Numbered from the stretch's first letter, positions 4,317-37,106 are shown. The stretch: DNA of 56,666 nucleotides from Candidatus Aegiribacteria sp. (GCA_030613065.1 JAUWMQ010000004.1:1-56666), one strand, 5' to 3'. The notes: generated by a model not told the origin, from the letters alone. A program made the numbers and translations.

Positions 4317-4317
4317 A

Positions 4318-4665: not shown

Positions 4666-4782
4666 ACTAAACCCGCCATTCATTCCGGGAGGAAGCACCG
4701 TGGTTAAAACCTTTTCAGAATGGTAGAATATAACCTGTATTAAATATGTCAATAAGGATCATTCTTATCCGGAAGACAGGAT

Positions 4783-7050: not shown

Positions 7051-7063
7051 CAGGAGTATACTG

Positions 7064-7330
7064 ATGTGTCTGGGAGTACCCGGGAAGATCGAGGAGATAT
7101 CTGGGAATGATGATCCTGTATTCGTTACAGGCAAGGTCAATTTCGGAGGTGTACTGAGGGAGGTCAGCCTTGCCGGCATAAAAGACGCGCATGTTGGTGA
7201 CTGGGTGATAGTGCATGCCGGTTTTGCACTCAACAAACTGAATGAGGAAGAGGCTTCGGAAGTGTTTGAGTACCTGAGACAGATTTCCGAATTCGGCAGG
7301 GCCGAGCTTGAGGATTCAGACGACACCTGA
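7064..7330 (+). CDS. hypC: Hydrogenase assembly chaperone HypC
   Basis: MCLGVPGKI N-terminus, VGDWVIVHAGFA. Confidence 0.97.
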   Translation: MCLGVPGKIEEISGNDDPVFVTGKVNFGGVLREVSLAGIKDAHVGDWVIVHAGFALNKLNEEEASEVFEYLRQISEFGRAELEDSDDT

Positions 7331-7355
7331 GCCCGGAAAGAAGAGGTGAAAAAGG

Positions 7356-9505: not shown

Positions 9506-9532
9506 CGAAGAAGCTTCCTTAAACAGCAGGTT

Positions 9533-10741: not shown

Positions 10742-10815
10742 ATTCTGTCACTTTCGAATGCATAGGTTAGTGTTTGAATGAAGTAAGATAGTCTGAAATG
10801 GGTGTACTTGTCCAG

Positions 10816-20760: not shown

Positions 20761-21114
20761 ATGAAAGAACTTCACAAAATACTGGAAGCACTTGTAGAAG
20801 TCAGCGGTATTGATGTTGCGGTCTGCGTTGGAAGAGACGGTTTTGTTATTGATGCCGCATCAACCGGTACTGCTGATACTGAAGCCATAGGAGCGATGGT
20901 ATCCACTGGTATGGGTTCCGCTGAAAGTGTGGGCCGTGAGCTGGGCCTGGAAGAAATGGATCAGGCAATGATGGAGTACAAAGGCGGTATAGTCATGATG
21001 ACTGCACTGGGCAGCGATGCTCTTCTCGTCATTGTTGCAAACAAAGATGCAAATCTTGGAGGGATCCGTCTTCAGGTTAGAAGAAACGCTCCTAAACTTG
21101 AGGCAGCACTTTAA
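20761..21114 (+). CDS. Roadblock/LC7 domain protein (MglB/MglC-like)
   Basis: 117 aa, VCVGRDGFVI...AIGAM...NLGGIRL roadblock pattern. AAAGGA SD. Confidence 0.9.
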   Translation: MKELHKILEALVEVSGIDVAVCVGRDGFVIDAASTGTADTEAIGAMVSTGMGSAESVGRELGLEEMDQAMMEYKGGIVMMTALGSDALLVIVANKDANLGGIRLQVRRNAPKLEAAL

Positions 21115-21147
21115 TCATTTACTTTCCGGGAAGCGGGTATTCTGCAG

Positions 21148-21660
21148 ATGCAATTACCAAAACGTGCAGATTCAATGGCAATTAAGGACATACTCTTACA
21201 TCTTGTTAAACGTTGCGAAGCTGTTACTGCTCTGCTGATAAGCAGGGAGGGTATCTGCATAAGCAAAGCCGGCAACGTAGAGTCATTGAATTCTACTGCT
21301 CTTGCAGCACTTGTGGCGGGAATGTTCGCTGCTACGAGAGAGGTGGCGAACATAGTAGGCGAAGAGCAGTTCTCGATTCTGCTACAACAGGGAGAGAAGC
21401 GCCATATTCATATTTCTCTGATAGGCCAGAGGAACATGATGGTAGTGGTCTTTGAAGATTACAGAAGAATTGGACGTGTTCGGCACGAAGCCCGGACAAT
21501 AGGTCCCGATCTTATCAGAATACTGGAGAGTAAAGAGAAATCCAAGAAGGAGGATGCCGGGGATATTTCCGTTCCGGAGTTCAGGGAATATGCTCTGAAT
21601 CTCATTGACAGGATATTTGTGGTTGGTGAAGACGAAGATGCCTCATCTCGATCCGACTGA
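21148..21660 (+). CDS. mglB: Roadblock/LC7 protein, MglB-like GAP
   Basis: LLISREG, ALAALVAGMFAATREVANIVGEEQFSILLQQGE, IGRVR and a C-terminal helix (ALNLIDRIF). Directly upstream of mglA. Confidence 0.8.
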   Translation: MQLPKRADSMAIKDILLHLVKRCEAVTALLISREGICISKAGNVESLNSTALAALVAGMFAATREVANIVGEEQFSILLQQGEKRHIHISLIGQRNMMVVVFEDYRRIGRVRHEARTIGPDLIRILESKEKSKKEDAGDISVPEFREYALNLIDRIFVVGEDEDASSRSD

Positions 21661-22222
21661 AAAGCAGATAGTCTTCAAGATCGTGTACTTTGGCCCTGGA
21701 ATGAGCGGTAAGACAACGAACCTGCTCTACATTCACAAGGCCTTGACTGACAAGTACAAGGGAGAAATGCTGGTTCTGGATACGGAAAAGGAGAGGACAT
21801 TGTTTTTTGATTTTTTTCCAGTTTCGCTTGGAACAGTTCAGGGTTACTCCCTCAAGTTTCATCTGTATACCATTCCCGGACAGATATTCTACGAAGCAAG
21901 TCGCAGGATCATACTCGTAGGGGCTGACGGTGTGGTATTTGTCGCTGACTCATCAGCTGACAGATTGAATGATAATACTGAAATGTACAGGTTGATGATT
22001 GAAAATCTCAAGAGTCAAGATATTGATCCATCCTCTTTTCCTATTGTATTACAATATAATAAACGTGATTGCAATCCGAGGCTTGAAATAGGCGAGATAG
22101 AAAGAGAACTTGAGTTAGACGGTATTTCGGTTACCGAATCCATCGCCATCGAGGGCAAGGGAGTGATGAAAACACTGCAGGTTGTAAGTAAGGAGATCAT
22201 CAAGCGTTTTCAGATAAGCTGA
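21638..22222 (+). CDS. mglA: MglA-family small GTPase
   Basis: KIVYFGPGMSGKTTNL, ERTLFFDF, LYTIPGQ, GADGVVFVADS, NKRD. Start MPHL at 21638 overlaps mglB. Confidence 0.93.
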   Translation: MPHLDPTEKQIVFKIVYFGPGMSGKTTNLLYIHKALTDKYKGEMLVLDTEKERTLFFDFFPVSLGTVQGYSLKFHLYTIPGQIFYEASRRIILVGADGVVFVADSSADRLNDNTEMYRLMIENLKSQDIDPSSFPIVLQYNKRDCNPRLEIGEIERELELDGISVTESIAIEGKGVMKTLQVVSKEIIKRFQIS

Positions 22223-22245
22223 TTTGAAAGGATTGAATATCATCT

Positions 22246-22935
22246 ATGTCCATTAACGGTGCGCTGAGTGATATTGGTTTCGTTTCCCTTCTCCAGTTTC
22301 CAAACTCCAGCAGGAAGACAGGTCTCCTTACAGTATTAACCATTGATGGCAAGGCTGAGTTCTACTACAGAAAAGGTGAACTTGTACATGCCAGTTACGG
22401 AAAGAAAACGGGTAGAGAAGTTCTTGTGGATATTGTTGACTGGAATGATGGCCAGTTTACTTTTGAGCCGGATTTGGAACCGGAAGTCACAACCATAAGC
22501 GAAGACCTTCACCACATTCTCATGTGGGCGCTCAAGGAGAGAGACGAGAGGAAGAATGATCAGCAGGAGAATGCTGTCAGCACGGTGGAATTTGATACCG
22601 AGTATTCGGAAAAGCTGGATGAACTCCTGAAAACAGCCTCCGGTATAGAGTACATATGCATTGTTAACGATTACGGACAGCTGATTGCCAGATCAATATC
22701 TGATAGCTCTTTCATACCGCACATTGAATCATTCATGGAATCCATGACCCGCTTCATTGCAGAATATCCCGGCAAAGTAACAGGAAAAACATTCATTGAA
22801 GCTGCTGATATTTCGATCGCGATCTCTGGACTTGATGAAAAACAGACCGTTGTCATTGCTACCGGCCCCGAGATGCAACTCGGAAGACTGGCCATGGCAC
22901 TCGGCAAAATAACAAGAGCTTTAACAGGGGCGTAA
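22246..22935 (+). CDS. DUF4388 (PATAN-like) domain fused to a C-terminal Roadblock-like domain
   Basis: GALSDIGFVSLLQF..KTGLLTV..GELVHA..WNDGQFTF at the N-terminus. C-terminal ICIVNDYGQLI...MQLGRL resembles roadblock. Confidence 0.75.
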   Translation: MSINGALSDIGFVSLLQFPNSSRKTGLLTVLTIDGKAEFYYRKGELVHASYGKKTGREVLVDIVDWNDGQFTFEPDLEPEVTTISEDLHHILMWALKERDERKNDQQENAVSTVEFDTEYSEKLDELLKTASGIEYICIVNDYGQLIARSISDSSFIPHIESFMESMTRFIAEYPGKVTGKTFIEAADISIAISGLDEKQTVVIATGPEMQLGRLAMALGKITRALTGA

Positions 22936-22945
22936 CGGATGTAAA

Positions 22946-24295
22946 ATGAATGATAGAATTAATCTCAATGAATTGCATTTTGAAGAATTTCTTGAGATAT
23001 GCTCCGATTCAGGACTTATTGAGGAAGGAACAGCAAGGGAGATCATCAATTTTGCCAAGTCTATTGGTGGAGTTGGAGCCGTCCCAAGATTTAACGGCGA
23101 ACAGCTGAACAGCACAGGTGATTTTACCGCGTCTCTGGTTTGTATCTATCCAGAAAACATGACCTTCAATAACTATGTAACAACCGAAGAAAATTACTAC
23201 GCCACGGAAATAGCCAGGACTATTGCTCTTATCCCAAGAGTATGGAAGAGTATCACTCCGATCATGCTCCATGCGAATACAGGTCAGGGTAAGACTCACC
23301 TGCTTGCTGCCATTACCAGATCAACCACTAAGAAAACTCTAATTCTTAATACCGTTGATCTGCAGATTGAGTATCAGCACTGTCTTAACGCGGGATTGGA
23401 TAGAGAACTGCGAGACTGGATTACTTCCTATGATCTTCTGATACTGGATGATATTCAGTTCTCCCAGGGTGATCTTCAGTTCCAGAAATATCTCATTTCC
23501 GTGATTAACCGTATGCCCAGGGGCAAACACGGAATAATCACGTCGTCTGATGTTCATCCCGCGAAACTGCTTGATATCGATTCATCGTTCTATTCCCGAC
23601 TGACCTCAGGACTTGTGATCAGGCTTGAAACGGTCAACTTCGATGGCAGAATGGAAATCCTCCGGAATCTTTTCGGCCAGATCGGCATAAAACCGGATGA
23701 GGAAATTCTAAAATTCATTGCTACCAATGTGAAAATGAATGTGAGACAGCTGAAGGCAGCAGGGAGGATGGTCCTTGCTCAAATGCTTGGACCGAGCCAT
23801 GGTGTAACTATCGCTATGGTCAGGGATATCCTCGGTTTCATGCAGATACACACTAAGGATGAACAACGCCCAAAGGCTTCTGAACATAATGTAAAAGAAG
23901 AGATAGCAACTGAAACCACCGTTGATCCAACCCCGTTTATTGTGGTTGATATTGATGAGGAAATTAAGGTTCGTAAAACTGTCCCGGAAACGAGAGTCGC
24001 CAAACCGCCTGAACCAGCCGGATTGGACGATGAAGATCACATATTTAAGGAGGAAACGGTCGCACATCCCTTGAAAACCGGATCTTCAAGTACAACGAGA
24101 TACAGAGATATGGTAGAATCCGCCCAGACGGTTGACAACCAGGTTGCAGCACTGAAAGAGGCAGTCGCAGATAGAATTGAACAGCTAGAGAAAAAGAACG
24201 CCGACTCGAGAGAGATAGATAAACTTAGATTCGCATTAGCTTTCCTGAACGAAGGTAAGCTTGAATCAGCTATGCTCGCTTTGAGACCTGAGTGA
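22946..24295 (+). CDS. DnaA-like AAA+ ATPase lacking the DNA-binding domain IV
   Basis: MTFNNYV..EN..A, Walker A ANTGQGKT, Walker B LILDDIQF, SRLTSGL, NVRQL. No domain IV HTH; an acidic Pro-rich linker and helical tail instead. Confidence 0.75.
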   Translation: MNDRINLNELHFEEFLEICSDSGLIEEGTAREIINFAKSIGGVGAVPRFNGEQLNSTGDFTASLVCIYPENMTFNNYVTTEENYYATEIARTIALIPRVWKSITPIMLHANTGQGKTHLLAAITRSTTKKTLILNTVDLQIEYQHCLNAGLDRELRDWITSYDLLILDDIQFSQGDLQFQKYLISVINRMPRGKHGIITSSDVHPAKLLDIDSSFYSRLTSGLVIRLETVNFDGRMEILRNLFGQIGIKPDEEILKFIATNVKMNVRQLKAAGRMVLAQMLGPSHGVTIAMVRDILGFMQIHTKDEQRPKASEHNVKEEIATETTVDPTPFIVVDIDEEIKVRKTVPETRVAKPPEPAGLDDEDHIFKEETVAHPLKTGSSSTTRYRDMVESAQTVDNQVAALKEAVADRIEQLEKKNADSREIDKLRFALAFLNEGKLESAMLALRPE

Positions 24296-24334
24296 GGTAA
24301 TTTTCATTAAAGCATTAACCTGGGAGGAATTATA

Positions 24335-24817
24335 GTGGGACAGATAAATCGTCTTCATGGTGTTGCGTACCTTCTGGGAGCCCTTGCACATGCATCTGAA
24401 AAGAATCTGGGTAAGAGCAGTCACTCGATATGCGTGCTGGCCGGTATGAAATTCGGCAAGGAGGCAGTTGAAGAAGTGGAACAGACAGATGACCCCGAGA
24501 AAGCTGTTGCACTGCTCAGGGAAGCACTTGAAAAACGGGGAGTAGTCTGGAATTTTGAACCTTTCAAAGGTGAGCGTAACGAGCTTATTGAAAAACGGGA
24601 CGGTGCGGAGGTTATGAGGCTTGTTTTTCGAACCTGTATGGTCAGAAACGCTCTCTTCCGTTATGCACATGAACAGAAGGAATCCATGTGTTACATGGCT
24701 CATGGAGTGTTCGCTGGAGCCATGGAGAAGGTTATGCCCGGTAAGAAAGTTAACCTTGAGATTCTGCATGCAGGTCCCAATGCCTGTCTGAAGGAAATGA
24801 TTCTGGAGGATGAATGA
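24335..24817 (+). CDS. V4R/hydrocarbon-binding-like protein
   Basis: 160 aa, three spaced Cys (RTCMVR, SMCYMAHGVFAG, NACL) in the V4R arrangement. GTG start after GGAGG. Confidence 0.65.
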   Translation: MGQINRLHGVAYLLGALAHASEKNLGKSSHSICVLAGMKFGKEAVEEVEQTDDPEKAVALLREALEKRGVVWNFEPFKGERNELIEKRDGAEVMRLVFRTCMVRNALFRYAHEQKESMCYMAHGVFAGAMEKVMPGKKVNLEILHAGPNACLKEMILEDE

Positions 24818-25728
24818 TGAAAACCAGAATTTCAACCGAATGGTTATCCGGATGTTCAGGATGCCACGTTGCCGTGGTGGATCTTCATGAAAAACTCATT
24901 AAACTGATTGATGATGTTGAGTTCGTACGTATTCCTGTGCTCATGGATGAGAAGGGATATCCTGAAGCTGATGTGGGGTTAGTTGAGGGAGCAATAAGAA
25001 GTAAACATGACAGGAAATCTCTTCTCCGAATGCGGGAAACTTGCAAAACGCTGATTGCTTTTGGTACCTGCGCGGTATATGGTGGTCCATCCGGTATCGG
25101 ATGGTTGTACGGGAAAGATACCATTTTGAACAAGATATACACTGATACCGTAACTGCATCACCTGATGGAAAATTTCCCGACGGAGCACCCGAACTGGAG
25201 CAGAGTGTGACTCCTCTGAATGAAGTTGTAGAAATAGATTTCTACATTCCAGGCTGTCCTCCTCATCCATACTTCATAGCGCTTGCTGTAAAGACTCTTC
25301 TGGGCGCTTCAGTACCAGCCATTTCAACTAAAACCGTCTGTTCAGCATGCAACCGCCGAATGGAAAAGCGTGAAGGTGTGAAGCTTCAGCGAGGCATAAG
25401 TACCGCTCCTGAGGAGGATATATGCTTTTTGAGCCAGGGAGTTATCTGTCTCGGATCAGTAACGCTTGACCGCTGCCAGGCGCAGTGTCCCATCAAGGGA
25501 ATTGCATGCGCCGGATGCGCTGGTCCCTCTATAGATATCATTACCGAACCGCATCTGGATATTCGAACCATGATAGCCAAAAGAATGAGTTTGCTCACTG
25601 GAATAGATAGCTTGGAGATAGTGGACTATATGCAGAAGGAAGCAAGAACATTCTACTCCTACGCTCTCTCATCACCGGTAATCTACAAAAAACCCACTGT
25701 TGAGATCAGGGAGTGGGCGGGAAGATGA
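24814..25728 (+). CDS. [NiFe] hydrogenase small subunit, MvhG-like (group 3)
   Basis: WLSGCSGC, VEGAI, GTCAVYGG, PGCPP, C-terminal Cys-rich region (VCSAC..ICF..CLG..C...CP..GIACAGC). Confidence 0.9.
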   Translation: MMKTRISTEWLSGCSGCHVAVVDLHEKLIKLIDDVEFVRIPVLMDEKGYPEADVGLVEGAIRSKHDRKSLLRMRETCKTLIAFGTCAVYGGPSGIGWLYGKDTILNKIYTDTVTASPDGKFPDGAPELEQSVTPLNEVVEIDFYIPGCPPHPYFIALAVKTLLGASVPAISTKTVCSACNRRMEKREGVKLQRGISTAPEEDICFLSQGVICLGSVTLDRCQAQCPIKGIACAGCAGPSIDIITEPHLDIRTMIAKRMSLLTGIDSLEIVDYMQKEARTFYSYALSSPVIYKKPTVEIREWAGR

Positions 25729-25766
25729 ACCAGAGTCAAATCGAAGCAGGACTATGAGGTTAAACC

Positions 25767-27173
25767 ATGAAAGCAAAGGTAATTGTTGATCCGGTAACCC
25801 GAATAGAGGGTCACGCCAGAATAGTGCTGGAAATAAACGACTCTGGTAATGTGTCCAGTGGGCATTTGCAGGTTCTTGAAATAAGAGGATTCGAAAAACT
25901 GCTTGAGGGCATGGAGCTTTTCAAACTTCCCCTGATAACCGGTCGGATATGCGGCGTATGTCCAGCTGCTCATCATCTGGCATCTGTAACCGCCATAGAG
26001 AACGGTTTGAAAGTGAAGATCCCGGTCGATGCGAAGCTGCTTCGGGAACTTATGTATATGGGGCACATTCTTCATTCCCATGCACTCAGTACATTTGTCC
26101 TTACAGGTCCTGATGTTCTTGTAGGGATTGGAGCCAAACCGGAGGACCGTAGTGTTCTTTCTCTTCTGAACATGGCACCTGAGATCGTTAAAAAGGTACT
26201 CAGACTGAGAAGTATTGGTCAGAGGATCGTTGAGATAGTTGGAGGCAGGGGAGTCCACCCTGTAACATCCGTTCCCGGAGGACAGGCTTCCAGGCCGGAT
26301 GCTGATGAAATCGCAAAAATGGGGCAGTGGGGAATAGAAGCCGGTTCCCTTGTAAAGGAACTCTCAGATGTCCTTGCGAAGAAGCTGGAGAACATCTCAG
26401 ATCTCAGAGAGATCGTAGAACTTCCTTTTCATGCGGTAGCCCTTTCAGATAACGGCAAAGTAACATTTTCCCAGAATGTCTGTAAGGTTCTTGACCCTTC
26501 AGGTGAAGTTGAAAGAACCTTCACCGTTGACGAATACTCCGACAATCTGGTCGAACATCCGATGCAGGGTTCATACATGAGGTCTGTAAGGCTGAAATCT
26601 GGAACAGAGGAGAAGAAGTTCTTCGTTGGTCCCCTTGCAAGGCTCAATGTGAACAGCAGTTTCTCAACACCGGAAGCCAACAAGCTGCTTTCCGATTTCA
26701 GGGGCGGAGGCAGCCCGAGACTCTCCGCAATCGATTATCTTGAAGCCAGACTCATAGAGTTGACGTATAGTGCCGAGAGAATCGCTGAAATCTGCGGAGG
26801 GGAACTGGGGGATGGACCTATCATTACCGATGCTTCCCCGGCGGAAGGCCGTTTCAGAGGTATAGTAGAAGCTCCAAGAGGCATACTGATTCATGATTAC
26901 GAGGCTGATGATGAAGGCAAAATTACCAGCGCGAATCTTATCGTGGCAACGCAGAACAATTACGATGCCATCGATTTTGCGATCACCGCCCTTGCAAAGC
27001 ACTTCAAACAGTCAGGTGATGACAATACTCTGATGAACGGTGCAGAATTCGCACTCAGATGTTTTGACCCATGCCTCGCCTGCGCTACTCATGCTGCGGG
27101 CTGCATGCCTATGAGAATTGAACTCAGGAGAAATGGAAAAATCTTCAGAGAACTCAGAAGGGAGGGCAAATAA
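25767..27173 (+). CDS. [NiFe] hydrogenase large subunit, MvhA-like (group 3c-like)
   Basis: PVTRIEGH, RGFE, L1 RICGVCPAAH, EAPRG, L2 FDPCLACATH, followed by a 26-aa cleavable C-terminal extension. Confidence 0.92.
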   Translation: MKAKVIVDPVTRIEGHARIVLEINDSGNVSSGHLQVLEIRGFEKLLEGMELFKLPLITGRICGVCPAAHHLASVTAIENGLKVKIPVDAKLLRELMYMGHILHSHALSTFVLTGPDVLVGIGAKPEDRSVLSLLNMAPEIVKKVLRLRSIGQRIVEIVGGRGVHPVTSVPGGQASRPDADEIAKMGQWGIEAGSLVKELSDVLAKKLENISDLREIVELPFHAVALSDNGKVTFSQNVCKVLDPSGEVERTFTVDEYSDNLVEHPMQGSYMRSVRLKSGTEEKKFFVGPLARLNVNSSFSTPEANKLLSDFRGGGSPRLSAIDYLEARLIELTYSAERIAEICGGELGDGPIITDASPAEGRFRGIVEAPRGILIHDYEADDEGKITSANLIVATQNNYDAIDFAITALAKHFKQSGDDNTLMNGAEFALRCFDPCLACATHAAGCMPMRIELRRNGKIFRELRREGK

Positions 27174-27895
27174 TGATAAAGATAACAATAGATGAAGATG
27201 CATGCGTAGGATGCGAACTTTGCGTCGATGAATGCCCTACGGATGTTTTCGAATTCAACGAGGAAAAGCAGATACCGGAGGTTGTCCGGGAAAAGGAGTG
27301 TTTCGGCTGTCTCAGCTGCAGTGAAATATGCCCTGCTACTGCGATTACTCACGAGGATATCATACATTCGGAAGATTACTACCATGATGAGGAGAATCTA
27401 AAACTCGCTTCCAAACTTGCAGTTGACGTTCCTCTTCTTCATACACCATCCGATGACAAACATAGAGAAGCAGCGCTTGGAGACCTGGGAATAAGACTGC
27501 TTTCGGTAGCTTCGATATTCCGCCAGACACTTGGAGGAAGTTTTCCCGCAGTTGGTACAATGGCCGGGAGAACGCTTGCTACGCAACTTCCAAGGTACAG
27601 GGTTCCCGAATCACTTCAGGAGGCTCTTGATATCGCAGTACAGCAATTCGCTCCAACATGGGATATCAAGCCTGAGTACGATGGAAGCTCAAAACTGGAG
27701 ATCAAGGTAGGAACCTGCTTTATCCGGGAGCTTTGCGTTGAAGAGGGGATAGAGCTTGGTGGAGACCTGTGTGTACTTTTTTATAATTACATGGCGGGAT
27801 ATATTGGAAAGCTCGGAAATGCTCGTCTGAAACTTATTGAATCATGTCCAGGCAGTAAAGAATGCAAGTACGATGTTGAGGTATTTGTTAAATAA
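27173..27895 (+). CDS. 2x[4Fe-4S] ferredoxin fused to a V4R-like domain
   Basis: CVGCELCVDECP and CFGCLSCSEICP. C-terminal TCFIRELC..LCVLFYNYMAG..CKY resembles the 24335 V4R-like protein. Confidence 0.8.
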   Translation: MIKITIDEDACVGCELCVDECPTDVFEFNEEKQIPEVVREKECFGCLSCSEICPATAITHEDIIHSEDYYHDEENLKLASKLAVDVPLLHTPSDDKHREAALGDLGIRLLSVASIFRQTLGGSFPAVGTMAGRTLATQLPRYRVPESLQEALDIAVQQFAPTWDIKPEYDGSSKLEIKVGTCFIRELCVEEGIELGGDLCVLFYNYMAGYIGKLGNARLKLIESCPGSKECKYDVEVFVK

Positions 27896-28413
27896 TGATA
27901 GCCGATCAACCCATTGTATACCCATTGGGTATAATAGGCGTCGGCAACACTCTTGCTGGAGATGACGGTGCCGGAAATACTGTTGTGAACAGGCTTAAAG
28001 AGAAGTATTCTGACAGGACAGATATATATCTCTACAATCTTGAAACCGATCCTCTTGAACTGTGGGATATACTTCCTTCGGCAAAGAAGTTTATCTTCGT
28101 AGATGCCGTTGCAGGGAAACCTGCCGGCAGGCTTGTTGCGGTGAGAGGAATGAGAAGAGCCTGGCCACCCTCTTTACACAATATGGATCTGCCCACAGTG
28201 ATTAAGCAGCTGTGCCGTCTTCGTCAGGATGTTGAACCAGAATGGAATATCTGGGGGGTTACTATCGATATTCCAGATCATTTACAGGAAGGTCTCTCCA
28301 TAGAAGTATCCGAAGCTGTGGAGAACCTTGTTGAGATATTGTCAGAAAGAATTGAATCAGGAGACTACAGCATCGAAGCACCGATAGTCTTTGAACAATT
28401 TGAGAATACCTGA
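27895..28413 (+). CDS. Hydrogenase maturation endopeptidase (HyaD/HycI family)
   Basis: IIGVGNTLAGDDGAG, FVDAV, SLHN, LSIEVSEAV. Confidence 0.92.
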   Translation: MIADQPIVYPLGIIGVGNTLAGDDGAGNTVVNRLKEKYSDRTDIYLYNLETDPLELWDILPSAKKFIFVDAVAGKPAGRLVAVRGMRRAWPPSLHNMDLPTVIKQLCRLRQDVEPEWNIWGVTIDIPDHLQEGLSIEVSEAVENLVEILSERIESGDYSIEAPIVFEQFENT

Positions 28414-28430
28414 TAAGAAAGGACTGCTCA

Positions 28431-28967
28431 ATGGATCGAGAAGAAAGTTTATTTACACCCGTGGATTTTCTGGAAGAAAAAGATTTTATTCGTGCCTGCA
28501 GTTCACGTACCGCTGAAGAACAGGAAGTTATAATAGATCAGGGGTCTTTCAGTAACGATCTATTCATAATCAAGAGTGGTCGTTTCGTAGTGAGTGATTC
28601 AAAGGGAGAAGAATTTGTTCTTGCCGCACTATCCGAAGGTGATGTGTTCGGTGAAATGGCCTTTTTCAGAAGCGGAATAAGATCGGCCACCGTAACATGT
28701 GTTACTCCCGGTGAGATTCTTTTCATAAGCAGGAAATCATTCAGAGAACTGCACGATAAGCATCCTGATCTTGCGATACGGGTCGCGTGCTCTCTGGGGG
28801 GAATGCTTTCAGACAGACTTAAACAGGCCGATTCGACACTCAGCCTTCTTGTGGATGACAGTGAGCTTAGACAGCGTTACGAAATACGCAGGCTTATGAG
28901 TGAACTGAAGGTTTCGGTTCGCAAGCTTCGCACTAATGATCATGAAGTGAACGATCTCCGTTTCTGA
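28431..28967 (+). CDS. Cyclic-nucleotide-binding domain protein (no HTH)
   Basis: IIDQG..LFIIKSG..VFGEMAFF..RSATV phosphate-binding cassette. The C-terminus is helical, not a Crp HTH. Confidence 0.85.
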   Translation: MDREESLFTPVDFLEEKDFIRACSSRTAEEQEVIIDQGSFSNDLFIIKSGRFVVSDSKGEEFVLAALSEGDVFGEMAFFRSGIRSATVTCVTPGEILFISRKSFRELHDKHPDLAIRVACSLGGMLSDRLKQADSTLSLLVDDSELRQRYEIRRLMSELKVSVRKLRTNDHEVNDLRF

Positions 28968-28987
28968 GTTCTCCACCAGGGGTTAAA

Positions 28988-31900
28988 ATGGATAAGAAGA
29001 CATCCAGCCGCTTCAGTGGTATGGGTATTGATCCTCTTACCGGGCTGCTTGACAGATCCTATATTGATAGTGCTGACAAGAAGTATCTCAGTAGGGATAA
29101 ACCCTGGGCGCTTCTAATGCTTGACGTTGATCACTTTAAACTGATAAACGATATCTACGGGCATCTGACCGGGGACAAGGTTCTCAGACAGACGGCCCTT
29201 ACGATACAGATAAATCTCAAGGAATCAGATACCGCTGTAAGATTTGGCGGGGATGAATTCATAGTGATCCTTCCCGATACCTGTGAAGAGGGGGCGCTTG
29301 ATCTGGCCCAGAGGCTGATTTACGAGATAAAGCGTGTTACATTCACTTCCGGTCTTCATCTAAGTCTTTCCATAGGTGTAAGCCAGAGCAGGAATACCGA
29401 TAAATCCATCATGGACCTGGTCTCACGCGCGGACAGGGCTCTGTACAAAGCTAAGGAGGCCGGCAGAGGCAGGTTCTTTTTTTATACTGAGGACCTTACC
29501 GAAAGTGAAGCACCTGAGATCAGCTTTTCGCATCTTGTGGGACGCAGGCCGGAGCTGCAGAAACTGAGACAGCTCCTTGAAGAATCAGTAACCGATTCAA
29601 GCAGATTTGCAATTATTTCAGGTGAGACCGGTGCAGGCAAGACAAGACTTGTGAATGAATTGCTGAATTACTGCAATTTCATGAAATCAGTTGTCGTGAG
29701 AAATTCGGTGATGGAGTATACACAGTCACAGCCATTCTCCCTTCTGACAGAACCGGTCAGGGAAGTGATGGCAAGCCTTACTGACAGCGAACTTAATGTA
29801 GTACGTGCAGCAGTTGAGCCTGTTCACCCTGCCACTCTTGATCTTTTCCCGGATCTTCAGGCTTCCGTTATGGATGATACTATCTACTTCCGCGAAGAGA
29901 GGCTCAGGTTCAGGATATTCAGGGATATTTCAGTTCTTCTTGCAGCTGTATCCTCTATCCACCCGATTACCATTATTCTGGATAACCTTCACTGGATCAC
30001 CGAGCCGGATCTTGCCATACTGTCATTCGTAGCAAGGAATACCTCCACAGCTAACATCCTGTACCTCTGTATTATGAGAAGGCAGGAATCATCTGATGAG
30101 ACGTTCAAAAAACTCTCCTCAATCAGAACGTCACTGCCCCTTCTCAGTCTTGAGATTGGCAAGATGACTGCTGAAGAAACGCGGAATATGATACTGTTTG
30201 CCCTGAAGGATCCCAATGTACCCTCCGAAGTTCAGGAATTTCTTATTTCCCAGTCCGGAGGGAATCCGCTGTTTCTCAGGGAACTTCTTACCTCATGCGT
30301 GGATTCCGGATACATTACGTGCGATAAATCAGGAGAGAAGATATACAGCCTGCCTGACGATCTGGAAGTACCTGACAGTATTGGACAGATCATTATGTTG
30401 AAGCTGTCCGATGTAAGCAGAGAAGCCGGTGAACTGCTGAAAATTGTCTCCCTCTCTCCGGATCAGTTCACACTTTCGCTGCTTGAGGGCATGACCGGTC
30501 GCGATGAGGTTGAACTTGCGCGAAGACTGGATGAATGTATAAAAGCCGGGCTGATTGAGGAGATCAGTGATGGAAGGAACGCCATCAATTTCAGATTTAC
30601 TCATGGTGCTGTAAGGGATTACCTCTCAGCTGACCTTCCTGATTCACTGAAGCTTACATACCACCAGAGAATGGCGGCCTATTTTGAGGCGTTCTTCAAG
30701 AAGGGTAATAAAGAACTTCTTACTGCTGTTGCATATCATTACTCTCACAGCCAGGATGATGAAAATACCGCGCATTATGCCCTGCTTGCCGCAAATCAGG
30801 CCTTTAACAGGGGTGCCAACAGGAATGCAATCCACTGGTATACTCTCTTCCTTGACAGGATTCCCGCTATTTCAGAGTATGCCGGGATGTTCACCATCCA
30901 TATCAACCTGGGTTCACTTTATTCGATTACCGGTGAAGTTGATAAGGCGGACAGCTACCTTAAACTGGCGCTGGAACTGGCTTCAAATCCCAGGGAGCTT
31001 GCTGCAGTTCATTTAAGGCTTGGAAGAAACAATCTGAACAGGAGCCTCTACTCCGAGACTCTTGAAAATTACGACAAGGCTGTAAGTATTTGCAGGGAGG
31101 ATGATTCAACAGATCCTGCCGTTTTCAGGATCTTTGTTGAAGCACTTATTGAAACATCCTTTGTGCACAGGCTTCAGGGAAACTACGATGAAGCCATCGT
31201 TTGTCTTGACCGGGTTGAAAAAGCCTTGAAAAAAGATAACACCAGAGTATATGAAGATATCATGGCTTTGTACTTAACTAGAAGAGCGGATGTCATATCG
31301 GAGCTGGGTTCCCGGGATGATGCTCTTGAACTATATGAGCGATCTCTGGAGATATACAGAAGAATCGATGACATACACGGTCAGGGCACTGTACTGAATA
31401 ACATGCATTCCATCTATTCCCATCATGGTGATTACGCTACCAGTCTCAGCATTATGGAGGAGACTATCCGTATAAATATGAAACTGGATGACAAACTTGG
31501 TCTCTCAATCGGGTACTACAATATCGCTGAATACTACCAGGAGATAAACATGCTTGATCAGGCCAGGGAGTATTACGACAGATACCTGGAACTGAACGAT
31601 ATCATCAAGAATGAACTTGGCTTTGGATATGGCAGATATGGTCTTGGCAAGCTTCACTGGCTTGAGGGAGAACTTGAAAAATCAAGGTTCTACTTTGAGG
31701 GTGCTCTGGAGATATTCGAAAAACTGCGAATCGACCAGATGAAAATATCCTGTGATCTCATGATATGTCAGATCTATGTTCAGATGGGTGAGTATGATAA
31801 GGCGAAAGAGATACTGGATTCCATCAATGATGATACTAAGATTCCAACAGTTGACCTCAATACACTCTACATGAAGGGTCTTGTGCTCCTTCACCATCCT

Positions 31901-32224
31901 GATTCTAACAGGGAATCCCTTGAACATGCAGAGGAGTTGTTAAGAGAAGTCATTAACTCCTCAACTGATCATTCGGAAGTTGATACCGCAATTTACTATT
32001 CAGCGCTGAATACGGCTCTTAATCGTCTTGGCAGAGATGAAGATATGATTGCAGCCCTTAGAGAAGGCTCCTGCAAACTGGCGGAGCAGCTTCAACACAT
32101 TCAATCCTATTTCATAAGGAACAGCATCATGACCAGACGTGAGATCGCCGAATTCATAGACCTCTGCCGCAGTAATGACCTCCCATTCCCGCCTGATGGG
32201 TTTGTTTTCAATGCGAACAGATAA
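28988..32224 (+). CDS. Diguanylate cyclase (GGDEF) - STAND-like AAA ATPase - TPR protein
   Basis: DPLTGL, DVDHFKLIND.YGH..GD, RFGGDEF; VGRRPE and Walker A GETGAGKT, LDNLHW, GGNPLF, FTHG; TPR-like repeats from about aa 640. Confidence 0.88.
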   Translation: MDKKTSSRFSGMGIDPLTGLLDRSYIDSADKKYLSRDKPWALLMLDVDHFKLINDIYGHLTGDKVLRQTALTIQINLKESDTAVRFGGDEFIVILPDTCEEGALDLAQRLIYEIKRVTFTSGLHLSLSIGVSQSRNTDKSIMDLVSRADRALYKAKEAGRGRFFFYTEDLTESEAPEISFSHLVGRRPELQKLRQLLEESVTDSSRFAIISGETGAGKTRLVNELLNYCNFMKSVVVRNSVMEYTQSQPFSLLTEPVREVMASLTDSELNVVRAAVEPVHPATLDLFPDLQASVMDDTIYFREERLRFRIFRDISVLLAAVSSIHPITIILDNLHWITEPDLAILSFVARNTSTANILYLCIMRRQESSDETFKKLSSIRTSLPLLSLEIGKMTAEETRNMILFALKDPNVPSEVQEFLISQSGGNPLFLRELLTSCVDSGYITCDKSGEKIYSLPDDLEVPDSIGQIIMLKLSDVSREAGELLKIVSLSPDQFTLSLLEGMTGRDEVELARRLDECIKAGLIEEISDGRNAINFRFTHGAVRDYLSADLPDSLKLTYHQRMAAYFEAFFKKGNKELLTAVAYHYSHSQDDENTAHYALLAANQAFNRGANRNAIHWYTLFLDRIPAISEYAGMFTIHINLGSLYSITGEVDKADSYLKLALELASNPRELAAVHLRLGRNNLNRSLYSETLENYDKAVSICREDDSTDPAVFRIFVEALIETSFVHRLQGNYDEAIVCLDRVEKALKKDNTRVYEDIMALYLTRRADVISELGSRDDALELYERSLEIYRRIDDIHGQGTVLNNMHSIYSHHGDYATSLSIMEETIRINMKLDDKLGLSIGYYNIAEYYQEINMLDQAREYYDRYLELNDIIKNELGFGYGRYGLGKLHWLEGELEKSRFYFEGALEIFEKLRIDQMKISCDLMICQIYVQMGEYDKAKEILDSINDDTKIPTVDLNTLYMKGLVLLHHPDSNRESLEHAEELLREVINSSTDHSEVDTAIYYSALNTALNRLGRDEDMIAALREGSCKLAEQLQHIQSYFIRNSIMTRREIAEFIDLCRSNDLPFPPDGFVFNANR

Positions 32225-32237
32225 GTCCGGATCATTC

Positions 32238-33614
32238 ATGAAGGGAAATTTCCAAAGAATACTTCTGGTTTTCCCGGAAACCAGGTATCCCTCGGGACAA
32301 CCGCCTTTGGGACTGGGAATGCTGGTTGCGATCTCCAGGAATCTGAACCGCCAGATCGAAGTGTTCGACATGTCCTTCCGAAGCCATCCTTTTGAGGATA
32401 TGAAGGAGGATCTGATCAGATTCAAGCCGGATACCGTGGGTATTTCCATCATGACGCCTCAGCTTGCTGATGCATGCAGAACAGCCGGGATCGTACGGGA
32501 AATGCTGCCCGAAGCTCTGATTATCGCAGGGGGACCCCATGCTACAGTTCTTCCAGATGATACTATCAGGAGAACCGGAGCAGATCTGGTTTACTCAGGC
32601 GAGGCTGAAAAGGCCTGGGCAGCTCTTCTGAATGGCATTGAACCCTCTGATATCCCGGGTATGACAATGATTAAGGAGGGGGAACTCCTTAGCGTTCCCG
32701 GTCTGATGTTGACAGAAGATCTGGATACTCTTCCGCTACCCGACAGGTCAGTATTCGATATGGAGAAGTACTTCGCTTCATGGTACTCTATGGACAGAGT
32801 TGATCCCCGTCTCAGGGGAACATCCATAATGGCAACCAGGGGGTGCCCTTTCAAGTGTACTTTCTGCCAGCCAACTCTTAGTGAGATATTCGGGAAGAGA
32901 ATACGGAAACGTTCCCCCGGGGCAATTGTCGGGGAACTGGAATCGCTTATAGAGAATTACGGTATCACAGCTTTCATGTTTGAAGATTCAACTTTCATAA
33001 TTGATGCAGAATGGGTTAGAAGCATCTGTGAATTGATGATAGAAAGGGAACTGGGGCTTCGGTGGTGCTGCAATGTCAGGGCGGACCTTCTGACTGAGGA
33101 TCTTCTCGATAGCATGATAAAAGCGGGACTCTCCAAGATAAACATGGGCGTGGAATCTGCGTCCCAGAGGGTACTTGATGAGATCTATGAAAAGGGGATT
33201 ACAGTTGATGGAGTAAGAAGAGCCCTCCGCTTGGCGAAGGAGAGAGGCGTTTACGTTCAGGGCTACTTCATGCTGGGAGCTCCAGGTGAAACACATGAGG
33301 AGATGAAACAGACTATCCGTTTTGCCTCACGGGAACCTTTTGATGATGCCCTCTTCGATATAACAACTCCATTTCCACATACTGAACTCTGGGAAAGAAC
33401 GAAGGAGTTCATCAGAAAGGATTACGAGGATTTCGACTGTTTTCACATATCGGTATACGAACTTGAGGGTTTTAAACCTGGTAAGATAGAGAGAATAAAG
33501 AAGAGAGCCTTCTGGAGGTTCTATCTGCATCCCACAAGAATACTCCAGACATTTAAAACGGTTCTTGGCCCCGGAAATCTTAAAAGGACATTGATCAAGG
33601 CCAGGAGGGTTTGA
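32238..33614 (+). CDS. B12-binding domain radical SAM protein
   Basis: PPLGL, GGPHAT (cobalamin-binding), RGCPFKCTFC, FEDSTF, MGVES. Start MKGN at 32238. Confidence 0.88.
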   Translation: MKGNFQRILLVFPETRYPSGQPPLGLGMLVAISRNLNRQIEVFDMSFRSHPFEDMKEDLIRFKPDTVGISIMTPQLADACRTAGIVREMLPEALIIAGGPHATVLPDDTIRRTGADLVYSGEAEKAWAALLNGIEPSDIPGMTMIKEGELLSVPGLMLTEDLDTLPLPDRSVFDMEKYFASWYSMDRVDPRLRGTSIMATRGCPFKCTFCQPTLSEIFGKRIRKRSPGAIVGELESLIENYGITAFMFEDSTFIIDAEWVRSICELMIERELGLRWCCNVRADLLTEDLLDSMIKAGLSKINMGVESASQRVLDEIYEKGITVDGVRRALRLAKERGVYVQGYFMLGAPGETHEEMKQTIRFASREPFDDALFDITTPFPHTELWERTKEFIRKDYEDFDCFHISVYELEGFKPGKIERIKKRAFWRFYLHPTRILQTFKTVLGPGNLKRTLIKARRV

Positions 33615-33624
33615 TCTAGCAGGA

Positions 33625-35040
33625 GTGACTGGAGGAATTTTGAGCAGAGTACTACTTGTCAACCCACCTTCAGCAGTTGGTGTTTACGAGAAAAGTAAAA
33701 TAAGAGTAGCAATAACAAGTGCCCCTTTCATTACCCTTGCCACGCTCGCGGGAGAGCTTCTAAGGGAGGGTCACCATGTCAGGATCGCTGACCTGATGGT
33801 TGAGGGGGATCCATTTAATACCTACAGGGGAATCCTTGAAGGGTTCCGACCGGAGTATGTCGGGATTACTTTTACAACACCTCTTTTTCATGAGGCTGCT
33901 GAGCTTGCGGGAATGGTTCATGAGCTCCTGCCGGAATCCACGACCATAGCCGGGGGAATACATGCCTCGACACTTCCACGGGAATCCCTGGAATCGGGTA
34001 ACTTCGATCTTGTGGTACTGGGTGAAGGTGAAAAAACCATTGCGGACATATGCGCTGCTACAGATCCTCAGAATATCAAAGGTATTGCCTTCGGAAGGGG
34101 CGATGATTTTACGGTAACACCTGACAGGGAGCTTATTGCTGACCTGGACGATCTTCCGCTGCCGGCCTGGGAGCTTCACGACCTTTCGCGATACAGATCA
34201 CCGCACATCGCCAGCAGAGACAATCCGGTCGGGTACATGGAAACGAACAGGGGCTGCAATCATCATTGCACATTCTGCAGCCAGAGAGTATTCGGCCATA
34301 GTATCAGATCGAAGTCCTCAAAAAGGGTCATCGATGAGATGTTCAGGATGCTTGCGTTGGGCTTCAAGGACATTCACATTAAAGACGACAATTTTACCGC
34401 TGATATAGAAATGGCCAAGGAGACCTGCAGATTGCTGATAGAAGAAAAATTCCCCGCCCCCTGGGCTCTTCCCACTGGTGTTAATGTTGCGGATGTTGAC
34501 AGCGAGTTTTTCCGGCTGGCCAGGGAAGCCGGCTGTTATCAGATCTCTTTCGGTATCGAGAGCGGTGTACCCGAGATACTCAGCGGTGTTAACAAAAAGC
34601 AGTCCCTTGAGAAGATCAGGGAAGCTGTTGAAATGGCTCACGATGCCGGTCTTGAAACGGTAGGCTTTTTCATGATGGGGCTGCCCGGTGACACAGAAAA
34701 GACCATGAAACGGAGTATCCGTTTTGCGCAAAGCCTTCCCCTGACATACGCAAAGGCATCAATGACACTCCCATTTCCCTCTTCCGCTCTTTACCGGCAG
34801 ATAAAGAATGATGGAAGAATCCTCTCTGAGGACTGGCGCAAGTACAACTTTCATTCCACATCGGAGGTATGGAAGCACGAAAATCTGGATTGGAGAACCA
34901 TCCAGCATTACTACTCGCTCTTTCACAGAAAATTCTACTTCAGACCTTCCTACATCTGGGGAAGATTCTGGCGGGACATCAGAATGGGGCAACTTTGGGA
35001 TGACATCAAAGCGGTCCTGGCGAACGACTGGTCGGGCTGA
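33625..35040 (+). CDS. B12-binding domain radical SAM protein
   Basis: LLVNPP, GGIHAS, RGCNHHCTFC, DDNFT, FGIESG, GLPGDT. Confidence 0.88.
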   Translation: MTGGILSRVLLVNPPSAVGVYEKSKIRVAITSAPFITLATLAGELLREGHHVRIADLMVEGDPFNTYRGILEGFRPEYVGITFTTPLFHEAAELAGMVHELLPESTTIAGGIHASTLPRESLESGNFDLVVLGEGEKTIADICAATDPQNIKGIAFGRGDDFTVTPDRELIADLDDLPLPAWELHDLSRYRSPHIASRDNPVGYMETNRGCNHHCTFCSQRVFGHSIRSKSSKRVIDEMFRMLALGFKDIHIKDDNFTADIEMAKETCRLLIEEKFPAPWALPTGVNVADVDSEFFRLAREAGCYQISFGIESGVPEILSGVNKKQSLEKIREAVEMAHDAGLETVGFFMMGLPGDTEKTMKRSIRFAQSLPLTYAKASMTLPFPSSALYRQIKNDGRILSEDWRKYNFHSTSEVWKHENLDWRTIQHYYSLFHRKFYFRPSYIWGRFWRDIRMGQLWDDIKAVLANDWSG

Positions 35041-36095: not shown

Positions 36096-37106
36096 ATGAA
36101 AATTTATATTACAATATTGATATTAATAATATCATGTATGACATTCGCTGCAGAAAGGGTCGTTCTTCTTGAGGATTTCACAAATTGCGGATGTGGTCCA
36201 TGCTGGAGCTTCGAACCTACTCTGAATGCTTTCATAAGCAGCCATTCCGGCGACCTTGCCGTTGTTCGGCCACATGTATCATGGCCGTCGTCCTCCGATC
36301 CCATTTATCAGGCAAATCCGGGTGAGCAGAACTATCGCAGGAGTATTTACGGAGTAAATTTGGTTCCCTGGATTCAGTTTGATGGAACCATAAAGGCTAC
36401 TTTAAGTTCCGGCGGACTGATCAGTGCTTTCAACTCCAGAATGGCCGTTCCATGTTATCTGGAGATCCAGGTGGAGAACTACGTGAGCTTCGGGACAGGT
36501 ACAATAGAGATCACCATGATCGCTGAGGAGGATCTTGGTGATACGAACCTGAAGGTTCATGCGATCATAGTTGAGAGCGGGATACCCGGCACAGGGTACT
36601 TTGCCAGTTCAACTTTCGAGCAGGCTTTCAGAGAGGAACTTTTCGGCAGCAGCGGGCAAGATGTAGTTTTTGGACCATCGTATCCTGACACTGTTGTTGT
36701 GAATGTGGATTATGACACAGGTATCTGGGTGTTCAGTAATCTTCACCTGGCAGTGTTCGTGCAGAATCACAGTTCTTCCGGTACAGAAGTACATAACGCC
36801 TGGTACGATTATCTTGGAGCTGTAACAGGTGTAGAAGGACAGGAATATGAAGAATTGAATGGTGATGAGCTGGTAGTACAGGTCAGTCCTAATCCCTCAA
36901 ACGGAAGAATTTCCATTACAACTGGAAAGCTTAATGAGGGAACTGCTGTTCTTGCTATTTACGATACCAGCGGTAGATGTATCACAAACATGACTGTTCG
37001 GGATGACGAAGTATCCCGGTTTGAAATAGATGAAACCGGAGTGTACTTCGCAAGAATAACCTCAGGAGGACAGATAGGCACCTCCAGAATTGTGGTTATC
37101 AGATAG
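36096..37106 (+). CDS. Omp28-related secreted protein with T9SS type A-like C-terminal domain
   Basis: Signal peptide, VLLEDFTNCGCGPC thioredoxin-like motif, YGVNLVP, C-terminal VSPNPSNG...GVYFARI. Confidence 0.8.
   Translation: MKIYITILILIISCMTFAAERVVLLEDFTNCGCGPCWSFEPTLNAFISSHSGDLAVVRPHVSWPSSSDPIYQANPGEQNYRRSIYGVNLVPWIQFDGTIKATLSSGGLISAFNSRMAVPCYLEIQVENYVSFGTGTIEITMIAEEDLGDTNLKVHAIIVESGIPGTGYFASSTFEQAFREELFGSSGQDVVFGPSYPDTVVVNVDYDTGIWVFSNLHLAVFVQNHSSSGTEVHNAWYDYLGAVTGVEGQEYEELNGDELVVQVSPNPSNGRISITTGKLNEGTAVLAIYDTSGRCITNMTVRDDEVSRFEIDETGVYFARITSGGQIGTSRIVVIR

Follow-up and report, generated by a model that had tools for sequence, protein, structure and literature searches.

The window analysed here, by which the whole stretch of DNA is meant, comprises 56,666 nt of Candidatus Aegiribacteria sp. 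(GCA_030613065.1 JAUWMQ010000004.1:1-56666; positions are counted from its first letter) and derives from an uncultured bacterium in a cold-seep metagenome. Its forward strand carries at 24335-28413 a tightly coupled five-gene cassette consisting of a stand-alone V4R-like protein (A), the small and large subunits of a [NiFe]-hydrogenase, a protein (D) that joins a ferredoxin to another V4R-like domain, and a maturation protease (Table 1). The cassette sits in the middle of a forward-strand run of 12 genes (20761-32224) that overlap or are separated by gaps of at most 39 nt. Gene A and the small subunit gene share an ATGA overlap, the stop codon of the large subunit gene overlaps the start codon of D in the sequence TAATG with GGGAGG ahead of D, and a further TAATG overlap joins D to the protease gene.

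Table 1. Genes of the hydrogenase cassette, its operon and the maturation genes in the window
Feature	Position	Strand	Remarks
V4R-like protein A	24335-24817	+	160 aa, stand-alone; GTG start, GGAGG ribosome-binding site 7 nt upstream
[NiFe]-hydrogenase small subunit, MvhG-like	24814-25728	+	Cys for three Fe-S clusters; without twin-arginine translocation (Tat) signal
[NiFe]-hydrogenase large subunit, MvhA-like	25767-27173	+	RICGVC (L1), DPCLACATH (L2), C-terminal extension
Fusion protein D	27173-27895	+	240 aa; residues 1-60 are a 2x[4Fe-4S] ferredoxin
V4R/ATC_hydrolase-like domain of D	residues ~95-240 of D		invariant C182, C188, C200, C231
Hydrogenase maturation endopeptidase, HycI/HybD family	27895-28413	+	TIGR00072 84 bits vs cutoff 47
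RoblA, Roadblock/LC7, MglB-like	20761-21114	+	Pfam Robl_LC7 1.4e-16; first gene of the operon
RoblB, second Roadblock/LC7	21148-21660	+	Pfam Robl_LC7 1.3e-08
MglA-family Ras-like GTPase	21638-22222	+	alternative start of the open reading frame at 21605; M at 21638 fits homologues
PATAN (DUF4388/PatA_N) protein	22246-22935	+	DUF4388 7e-19; weak Roadblock-like C-terminal part, Robl_LC7 0.047
DnaA-like AAA+ ATPase	22946-24295	+	449 aa, long charged C-terminal region; Pfam Bac_DnaA 2e-22
Cyclic-nucleotide-binding protein	28431-28967	+	Pfam cNMP_binding 1.6e-20; 17 nt past the protease gene
GGDEF diguanylate cyclase fused to AAA_16 NTPase and TPR	28988-32224	+	Pfam GGDEF 2.8e-38
hypB	3651-4343	-	Pfam cobW/HypB
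hypA	within 4318-4752	-	MHE and two CxxC motifs
hypF	4783-7050	+	Pfam HypF
hypC	7064-7330	+	N-terminus MCLGVPG
hypD	7356-8450	+	Pfam HypD
hypE	8408-9505	+	Pfam AIRS

Both hydrogenase subunits resemble those of the methanogen Mvh enzyme. In PDB sequence searches, the closest solved structure to the small subunit is MvhG of Methanothermococcus thermolithotrophicus (5odc_E, 5.9e-70), with which the Cys residues of the proximal, medial and distal clusters align. The closest to the large subunit is MvhA (5odc_F, 2e-89), followed by the electron-bifurcating NiFe-HydABCSL (7t2r_D) and an NAD-reducing enzyme (5xf9_D). The large subunit runs 26 residues beyond the L2 His. Group 3c enzymes are characterised by an MvhA/MvhG-like core with RxCGxC and DPCxxCxxH motifs, which is present here, and by MvhD and HdrABC, which do not recur within ~7 kb of the cassette in the 72 related loci described below and are not listed in nine further loci annotated with Pfam; the NCBIfam equivalog cutoffs are not reached either (VhuA, 292.5 bits vs 800; VhuG, 216.9 bits vs 450). 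The downstream GGDEF gene brought group 2c, the sensory class linked to diguanylate cyclases, into consideration. This assignment was rejected, as L2 reads CFDPCLACATH and not the group 2c consensus SFDxCLVCTVH (PMC4853749) and the best matches belong to group 3. Group 2b (HoxBC/HupUV) was ruled out by the large subunit extension, the protease gene and an operon without a HoxJ-type kinase. The complete [NiFe] maturation set hypA, hypB, hypF, hypC, hypD and hypE lies 15 kb upstream of the hydrogenase genes, and hypB and hypE are also found downstream of the cassette in several Fermentibacterota loci. Together with the dedicated protease, these genes indicate a functional NiFe centre. We conclude that the predicted product is a cytoplasmic, maturable hydrogenase that is related to group 3c and is not an orthologue of Mvh.

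A previous sequence-only reading of this locus had noted a three-Cys pattern common to the two genes flanking the hydrogenase subunits, had recognised two CxxCxxCxxxCP motifs in the downstream one and its translational coupling to the large subunit gene, and had proposed a V4R-type fold for both products. The coupling is evident in the first TAATG overlap described above, and the remaining three points are borne out by the following comparisons. The ferredoxin part of D bears CVGCELCVDECP and CFGCLSCSEICP, the two CxxCxxCxxxCP motifs, and all eight of their Cys are invariant in 30 homologues; it matches Fer4 families of Pfam and is closest to polyferredoxins including MvhB (9sfi_O, 9sw6_G). 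The shared pattern reads TC101MVR, C119YMAHGVFAG and NAC151 in A and TC182FIR, C200VLFYNYMAG and EC231 in D. Profile-profile alignment superposes C101 on C182, C119 on C200 and C151 on C231, and the three Cys are invariant across both families.

Kinship between A and D is detectable directly (BLASTP, E=9e-5; hhalign, E=1.5e-3) and through bridging relatives. When compared with 1.84 billion representative proteins, a profile of the D C-terminal domain retrieves only 63 clusters; among these are proteins of 161-162 aa (P0288, P0297, P0298 and P0302; E=6e-6 to 1e-3) that align with the A family and carry the invariant Cys of A, and one of these, P0297, matches A directly (7e-25). Some relatives mix the motifs of A and D (CPVRQVC, LCHLGHGYLAG, HAGINAC). 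On these grounds A and D are distant paralogues.

Family searches place both proteins at the margin of known families. Protein A scores 13.8 bits against Pfam V4R (PF02830), short of the cutoff of 31, and weak V4R matches are present in only 12 of 30 members of its family. Protein D matches PF14196 (ATC_hydrolase) and not V4R; the window copy scores 19 bits vs a cutoff of 28.1, and 21 of 21 D C-terminal domains match this family, the best at 2e-8. According to Galperin and colleagues (PMC5847659), HNOB, V4R and ATC_hydrolase are kindred families with a common cluster of three conserved Cys. Public annotations of the A and D genes are 'hypothetical protein', '4Fe-4S binding protein' and 'predicted hydrocarbon binding protein'. 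PDB sequence searches with A, the A profile and the D C-terminal profile returned no V4R structure, and only the comparison of folds succeeded. The AlphaFold2 model of A has a mean predicted local distance difference test (pLDDT) score of 80; in that of D, the C-terminal domain scores 80-92 and the ferredoxin domain poorly (33-55), and the relative placement of the clusters and the V4R domain was therefore not read from the model. In Foldseek searches of the PDB, the V4R domains of PoxR, MopR and DmpR rank at the top for A, followed by Bet3 (E 6e-5 to 1e-3; template modelling score ~0.5), and those of MopR, PoxR and DmpR rank at the top for the D C-terminal domain (E 1e-4; root-mean-square deviation ~4.2 A over ~150 columns). 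Bet3/TRAPP subunits, H-NOX, BcsD and YslB are among the lower matches of the two models. Both display the two-layer alpha/beta architecture of the V4R/Bet3/H-NOX superfamily, with N-terminal helices, a long central helix and a sheet of 4-5 strands, and the helix that lines the pocket of A (TCMVRNALFRYAHEQK.SLCYMAHGVFAGAME) is almost invariant. The direct kinship, the bridging relatives and the structural matches of the models support the V4R-like assignment of A and D at the level of a fold superfamily.

Beyond the three Cys noted previously, D contains a fourth invariant Cys, C188 (C-x5-C), in place of which A has an invariant His (C119-x3-H123). All 119 of 119 motif-bearing copies of D have the Cys six residues after the first Cys and lack the His, and all 120 of 120 copies of A lack that Cys and have the His four residues after the second conserved Cys (C119). 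One or both of these fourth ligands occur in 62 of 65 other motif-bearing relatives. The putative ligands are located at a strand end, in the long helix and on the last strand of the predicted models. Alternation of a fourth Cys with His is the pattern expected of a tetrahedral Cys3(Cys/His) site. A structural zinc site is known in V4R and TRAPPC3 proteins (PMC10933270, PMC5847659), and its ligand positions vary among homologues (PMC10933270). Read conservatively, the conserved Cys cluster of A and D is probably such a zinc site, with a redox-active Fe or Fe-S site also possible. Since it matches the structural zinc site, the cluster is not evidence for a redox centre.

Homologues of D (282) and of A (309) were identified, the best matches being from Candidatus Aegiribacteria (Fermentibacterota); among the 120 matches listed for A, which span several phyla, identity is at least 63%. 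A scan of one genome per species yielded 72 true loci, all metagenome-assembled, from Fermentibacterota, Acidobacteriota (Thermoanaerobaculia, Holophaga and Bryobacterales), Desulfuromonadales/Geobacter/Pelobacter, Methylomirabilota, Eisenbacteria and Fibrobacterota/Chitinispirillaceae. The order A, small subunit (HydS), large subunit (HydL), D, protease is kept throughout loci L003-L074, cut contigs and the decayed locus L072 aside. The latter was considered as an exception lacking the hydrogenase and rejected as decayed. Remnants at 9232-11240 of this locus comprise RoblB fragments and the initial 65 residues of MglA, directly joined to the final 38 of HydL, and a frameshifted D; the cause is either a deletion or an assembly artefact. 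This V4R subfamily adjoins a hydrogenase in every examined locus.

More distant loci reveal rearranged versions of the same parts. In the split form (L086, L087, L088, L090 and L091), a 2x[4Fe-4S] ferredoxin of 83-90 aa is followed by a separate V4R protein of 151-166 aa. In the fused form (L085 and L089), a tandem V4R-V4R protein of ~310 aa precedes the small subunit and a separate ferredoxin comes after. Such fusions and fissions constitute evidence of the Rosetta-stone type for a joint function of the ferredoxin and both V4R domains, and thus support a putative A:D V4R pair acting with the ferredoxin. The fused form extends to archaea, as L085 has a cluster mate, NPA96889.1, from a Thermoproteota archaeon. 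The L085 large subunit (6310-7458; 382 aa) has no Pfam match and keeps RICGSC; it ends in CMHCASL, three residues past the second Cys pair, with neither the His nor an extension, and is the sole variant to stop so early. In this truncation it resembles sensor-type or protease-independent enzymes.

Clustering of all other open reading frames within ~7 kb of the cassette in the 72 loci identifies one dominant class of neighbours, the Roadblock/PATAN proteins, which are present in 54 of the 72. Apart from presumably spurious frames, recurrence is otherwise limited to the DnaA-like ATPase (18 loci), a second Roadblock protein (RoblB) next to mglA (17), MglA (14), the cNMP-binding protein (12) and the GGDEF-AAA-TPR protein (7, Aegiribacteria). 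No Hdr, MvhD, flavoprotein or NAD(P) module family recurs within this range, and the Pfam annotation of nine further loci (L001, L083 and L085-L091) lists neither MvhD nor Hdr. The usual partner of such hydrogenases, whether MvhD/Hdr or NAD(P)- or F420-reducing subunits, thus seems from gene content to be replaced by the 2x[4Fe-4S] ferredoxin and the V4R pair. Upstream sequence of at least 1.5 kb is available for 57 loci, and in 53 of them a Roadblock-domain gene precedes the V4R gene by no more than 2.5 kb, in the same orientation in 47 of the 53; the typical distance to the V4R gene is 35-260 nt in Acidobacteriota and Desulfuromonadales. RoblA of the window, whose orthologue immediately precedes the V4R gene in most other phyla, matches this cassette-adjacent gene of Acidobacteriota and Desulfuromonadales at 100-116 bits, and its PDB matches are an Asgard Roadblock protein, CvnB5 and MglB (MglB at ~1e-4). 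The Roadblock fold is a platform for small GTPases. The GTPase of the window matches Thermus MglA (3t12_A, 4.8e-55) and Myxococcus MglA (~2e-51) and is, by this comparison, a true MglA, which together with the adjacent Roadblock/LC7 proteins forms an MglA/MglB-type module. PATAN genes near mglA/mglB were known earlier (PMC4316618), and the survey of prokaryotic Ras-like GTPases by Wuichet and Søgaard-Andersen does not mention hydrogenases.

The remaining neighbours differ between lineages. A DnaA-like ATPase between the GTPase module and the V4R gene is confined to Fermentibacterota and absent in the other phyla. L001 has a histidine kinase and, upstream of the cassette, a response regulator-PatA_N-Roadblock fusion; L088 has an MglA/Arf-like GTPase, two Roadblock genes, PatA_N and a response regulator/histidine kinase pair; L090 has a Roadblock gene and then a Ser/Thr kinase-HEAT-TPR protein of 1963 aa; and the archaeal-type L085 combines the tandem V4R gene and the ferredoxin with a Roadblock gene. 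A ParA/MinD-like ATPase is encoded in L083 (6949-7761) with PATAN and Roadblock proteins and in L091 (9000-9818) with an upstream PatA_N-Roadblock protein. The two loci are unrelated, and the ATPases beside the cassette may point to a component that serves positioning. The linkage to Roadblock, PATAN and MglA, with no conserved redox partner, points to sensing or transduction in preference to a metabolic electron outlet.

Some lineages have additional V4R-fold proteins. A canonical XylR_N plus V4R protein, above the Pfam threshold (PF02830, 3.2e-08), is encoded at 1520-2167 of L020, and similar ones are encoded in six further Fermentibacterota loci; the genes sit a few kb upstream of Roadblock/MglA, so that three or four V4R-fold proteins are present in these lineages. 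Within the window, two tandem genes for B12-binding radical SAM proteins (32175-35040) slightly overlap the end of the GGDEF-AAA-TPR gene, and in six related loci the GGDEF gene is likewise succeeded by a putative pair of this kind, making 12 copies in all. An antisense open reading frame of 189 aa covering gene A (24266-24835, reverse strand) was dismissed as most likely spurious, and a family of ~247-aa unannotated opposite-strand frames in ten further loci is presumed to be spurious as well. After the hyp genes comes a histidine-kinase-like gene with a HATPase_c domain (9533-10741, reverse strand). Elsewhere, the window edge at 154-2380 encodes a SinI-type restriction endonuclease together with an HTH-containing C-5 cytosine methyltransferase; the GC content of this stretch is 0.38, vs ~0.47 elsewhere, and it is probably a mobile restriction-modification island. 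Proteins at 36096-37106 and 47363-50986 bear type IX secretion sorting domains (Por_Secre_tail, CHU_C), which fit with an origin in the FCB superphylum.

The sequencing runs found for the window itself are of DNA only, from the cold-seep metagenome, and expression was approached by proxy through the Fermentibacteria chromosome locus L063, which has the same gene order. Metatranscriptome contigs 90-95% identical to L063 cover the region from Roadblock to protease at a similar low depth, and a single contig of 2504 nt includes the DnaA-like gene, the V4R gene, HydS and the start of HydL, which suggests that the cassette is co-transcribed in this relative. Promoter and terminator scans of 19-36 kb of the window gave counts at the level of chance (29 vs 26.4 expected and 13 vs 13.3 expected, respectively) and were not used.

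It is plausible that the cassette encodes an H2- or redox-sensing hydrogenase whose V4R pair transduces its state to a Roadblock/GTPase switch, a reading that we favour with slightly less than even confidence. In this model, the NiFe site matured by the hyp products would split H2, and the electrons would pass through the three small-subunit clusters to the two clusters of the D ferredoxin domain. The redox state of this chain would then alter an A:D V4R heterodimer, in which the V4R domains would dimerise via their N-terminal helices and be held by the Cys3(Cys/His) metal site. The V4R pair would hand this state to the Roadblock protein encoded nearby, and the outputs would be the MglA GTPase, the two MglB-like proteins and the PATAN, cNMP-binding and GGDEF proteins in the window, and histidine kinase/response regulators, Ser/Thr kinase or ParA-like ATPases at other loci. 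A sensory complex is the simplest explanation of three features taken together: the characterised bacterial V4R/H-NOX members (PoxR, MopR, DmpR and H-NOX), which are the top structural matches, are sensor domains; a Roadblock protein is the sole conserved neighbour; and the accompanying signalling genes are varied, with redox partners missing from among them. Confidence is held at this level because the steps of the relay, namely complex formation, electron flow, conformational change and a GTPase/polarity or second-messenger output, are inferred, and because features of catalytic hydrogenases are retained.

Several observations weigh against a sensor. Like catalytic enzymes and unlike the group 2b sensors, the large subunit has retained a C-terminal extension and a dedicated protease. 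In Aegiribacteria MLS_C, this is seemingly the only [NiFe] hydrogenase, and an unlinked Hdr is present in the genome (PMC4846661); a metabolic role is accordingly possible. The Cys site is likely to bind zinc, which leaves the redox readout unexplained. The linkage to Roadblock genes could reflect localisation or assembly and not signalling, and MglA is adjacent only in Fermentibacterota and some Acidobacteriota. Finally, the metatranscriptome contigs are assemblies from a strain only 90-95% identical, in which DNA carry-over is possible.

The most substantial alternative, although one that we consider rather unlikely, is that the ferredoxin-V4R fusion and A form the metabolic electron-output module of a catalytic bidirectional cytosolic hydrogenase, replacing MvhD and MvhB. 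Electrons would flow to a soluble ferredoxin or an unlinked HdrA-type partner, with the V4R domains as a docking scaffold. The methanogen operon has the order mvhD-G-A-B, which the cassette parallels, and the core is closest to MvhA and MvhG, as the ferredoxin domain is to polyferredoxins including MvhB. The C-terminal extension, dedicated protease and hyp genes are also those of catalytic enzymes, and MLS_C with its single [NiFe] enzyme and Hdr elsewhere would fit. However, no redox-partner family recurs within ~7 kb on either side in the 72 loci, and none is annotated in the nine loci with Pfam annotation. A metabolic module also leaves unexplained the near-universal Roadblock gene, the varied signalling neighbours, and the maintenance of two sensor-fold domains at an identity of at least 63% among the listed homologues from several phyla. 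The same evidence bears on the earlier proposals for this locus. That of a V4R heterodimer as transducer gains from the V4R folds, from the tandem fusions in L085 and L089, which support an A:D pair, and from the split loci, which link ferredoxin and V4R protein. The proposed replacement of MvhD/MvhB agrees with the position of A in the MvhD slot and of D in the MvhB slot, and with the lack of MvhD or Hdr in the Pfam-annotated loci. The idea that the pair serves purely in electron transfer is thereby supported in part; the linkage to signalling genes points elsewhere, and the zinc-like Cys site is no evidence for it.

Two other explanations, both improbable in our estimation, account for part of these observations. 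The pocket of the V4R pair may hold a hydrophobic substrate or cofactor, such as a quinone-like compound, a tetrapyrrole or a sulfur compound, that is reduced through the fused ferredoxin, making the complex an H2-dependent reductase comparable to FrhB, HoxFU or the beta/gamma partners of sulfhydrogenase. Such a role would suit the near invariance of the pocket-lining helix of A, the match of the D domain to the enzyme-named family ATC_hydrolase, and the binding of phenols, palmitate and heme by V4R, Bet3 and H-NOX pockets, respectively; to our knowledge, every group 3 hydrogenase carries an acceptor-specific module on its small subunit. Yet no candidate substrate pathway is conserved nearby in the 72 loci, redox catalysis by a V4R or H-NOX domain is not known to us, and the Roadblock and signalling linkage is not accounted for. 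A comparably slim chance is given to an ordinary enzyme that is cargo or effector of a TRAPP/Ragulator-like adaptor, composed of the V4R pair and Roadblock protein, by which MglA-GTP, PATAN or ParA-like proteins would place the hydrogenase at a pole or membrane site, or assist its assembly. MglA is a polarity GTPase, ParA/MinD-like ATPases adjoin the cassette in L083 and L091, and a combination of Bet3-fold, Roadblock/longin and small GTPase proteins mirrors TRAPP and Ragulator (PMC10933270, PMC3747258). Against this, many loci have a Roadblock gene but no nearby GTPase or ParA gene, and the histidine kinase/response regulators and the GGDEF, cNMP-binding and Ser/Thr kinase proteins are signalling and not positioning proteins. 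Nor do we know of any precedent for GTPase-directed positioning of a soluble hydrogenase.

Comparison with known systems delimits what may be new about the sensor proposed here. MvhAGD with MvhB (F420-non-reducing, group 3c; PDB 5ODC, 9SW6) has the same three-cluster small subunit, L1/L2 motifs, C-terminal processing and order of accessory, small subunit, large subunit and ferredoxin-type genes. The cassette differs in having neither the [2Fe-2S] protein MvhD nor a linked HdrABC, in placing a V4R protein in the upstream slot, and in D, which has one 2x[4Fe-4S] unit fused to V4R, whereas MvhB is a 12-cluster polyferredoxin. With the XylR/DmpR-type V4R proteins (PoxR 5FRU, MopR 5KBE and DmpR 6IY8) and archaeal/eukaryotic TRAPPC3/Bet3, the models of A and D have in common the two-layer alpha/beta architecture and a conserved Cys cluster that would connect the sheet to a long helix, the metal being zinc in PoxR, MopR and Thor-TRAPPC3; dimer formation is a property of PoxR, MopR, DmpR and TRAPPC3/Bet3 that the proposed pair would share. 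Unlike the XylR/DmpR type, A and D have no AAA+ or DNA-binding output and are tied to a hydrogenase and a ferredoxin, and the sequence similarity is marginal.

The group 2b enzymes HoxBC/HupUV with HoxJ/HupT, and the group C [FeFe] enzyme HydS, are likewise cytoplasmic hydrogenases encoded with signalling proteins, and the proposed logic is also alike, in that an attached sensor-type domain would read out an Fe-S redox state that depends on H2. In the cassette, however, the enzyme is Mvh-like and not of group 2, the extension and protease are kept, the candidate transducer is a V4R pair with Roadblock and not a PAS-histidine kinase, and the putative outputs include a Ras-like GTPase. MglA/MglB, the conservons CvnA-D and TRAPP/Ragulator also combine Ras-like GTPases with Roadblock dimers, and TRAPP has the composition of Bet3-fold, Roadblock/longin and GTPase proteins, although Roadblock differs from longin; none of these is known to involve a hydrogenase or Fe-S proteins. 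The likeness to TRAPP/Ragulator is a resemblance and not membership. A literature search found no paper linking a hydrogenase with V4R or Roadblock genes, and the co-mentions that were checked were unrelated. A wider hypothesis, which we regard as doubtful, is that the cassette represents an undescribed class of H2 sensor in which an Mvh-derived hydrogenase acts through a ferredoxin-linked V4R pair and a Roadblock protein on an MglA-type GTPase. No less tentative is the notion that this class would be a prokaryotic, redox-gated regulator of GTPases like TRAPP or Ragulator, found in bacteria and Thermoproteota archaea.

Group 3 [NiFe] hydrogenases are classed by their partner module (F420, NADP, NAD or Hdr), to which the cassette would add a ferredoxin and V4R pair; it represents a group 3 hydrogenase in which both the partner module and the context, probably one of signalling, are new. 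The cassette has a wide distribution among uncultured anaerobes from sediments, digesters and soils, including Fermentibacterota, Fibrobacterota, Acidobacteriota and relatives of Geobacter, and archaeal versions also exist. In Asgard archaea, TRAPP/Ragulator-type components are reported not to be operon-linked (PMC10933270), and a co-operonic set of Bet3-fold, Roadblock and small GTPase genes would offer a tractable prokaryotic analogue. Should the complex prove to be a sensor, it would for the first time connect a hydrogenase with a Ras-like GTPase switch, and it could steer pilus or flagellum behaviour, or c-di-GMP/cNMP signalling, by the level of H2. It would also show how fermenters and syntrophs gauge H2, which governs how their metabolism fares thermodynamically.

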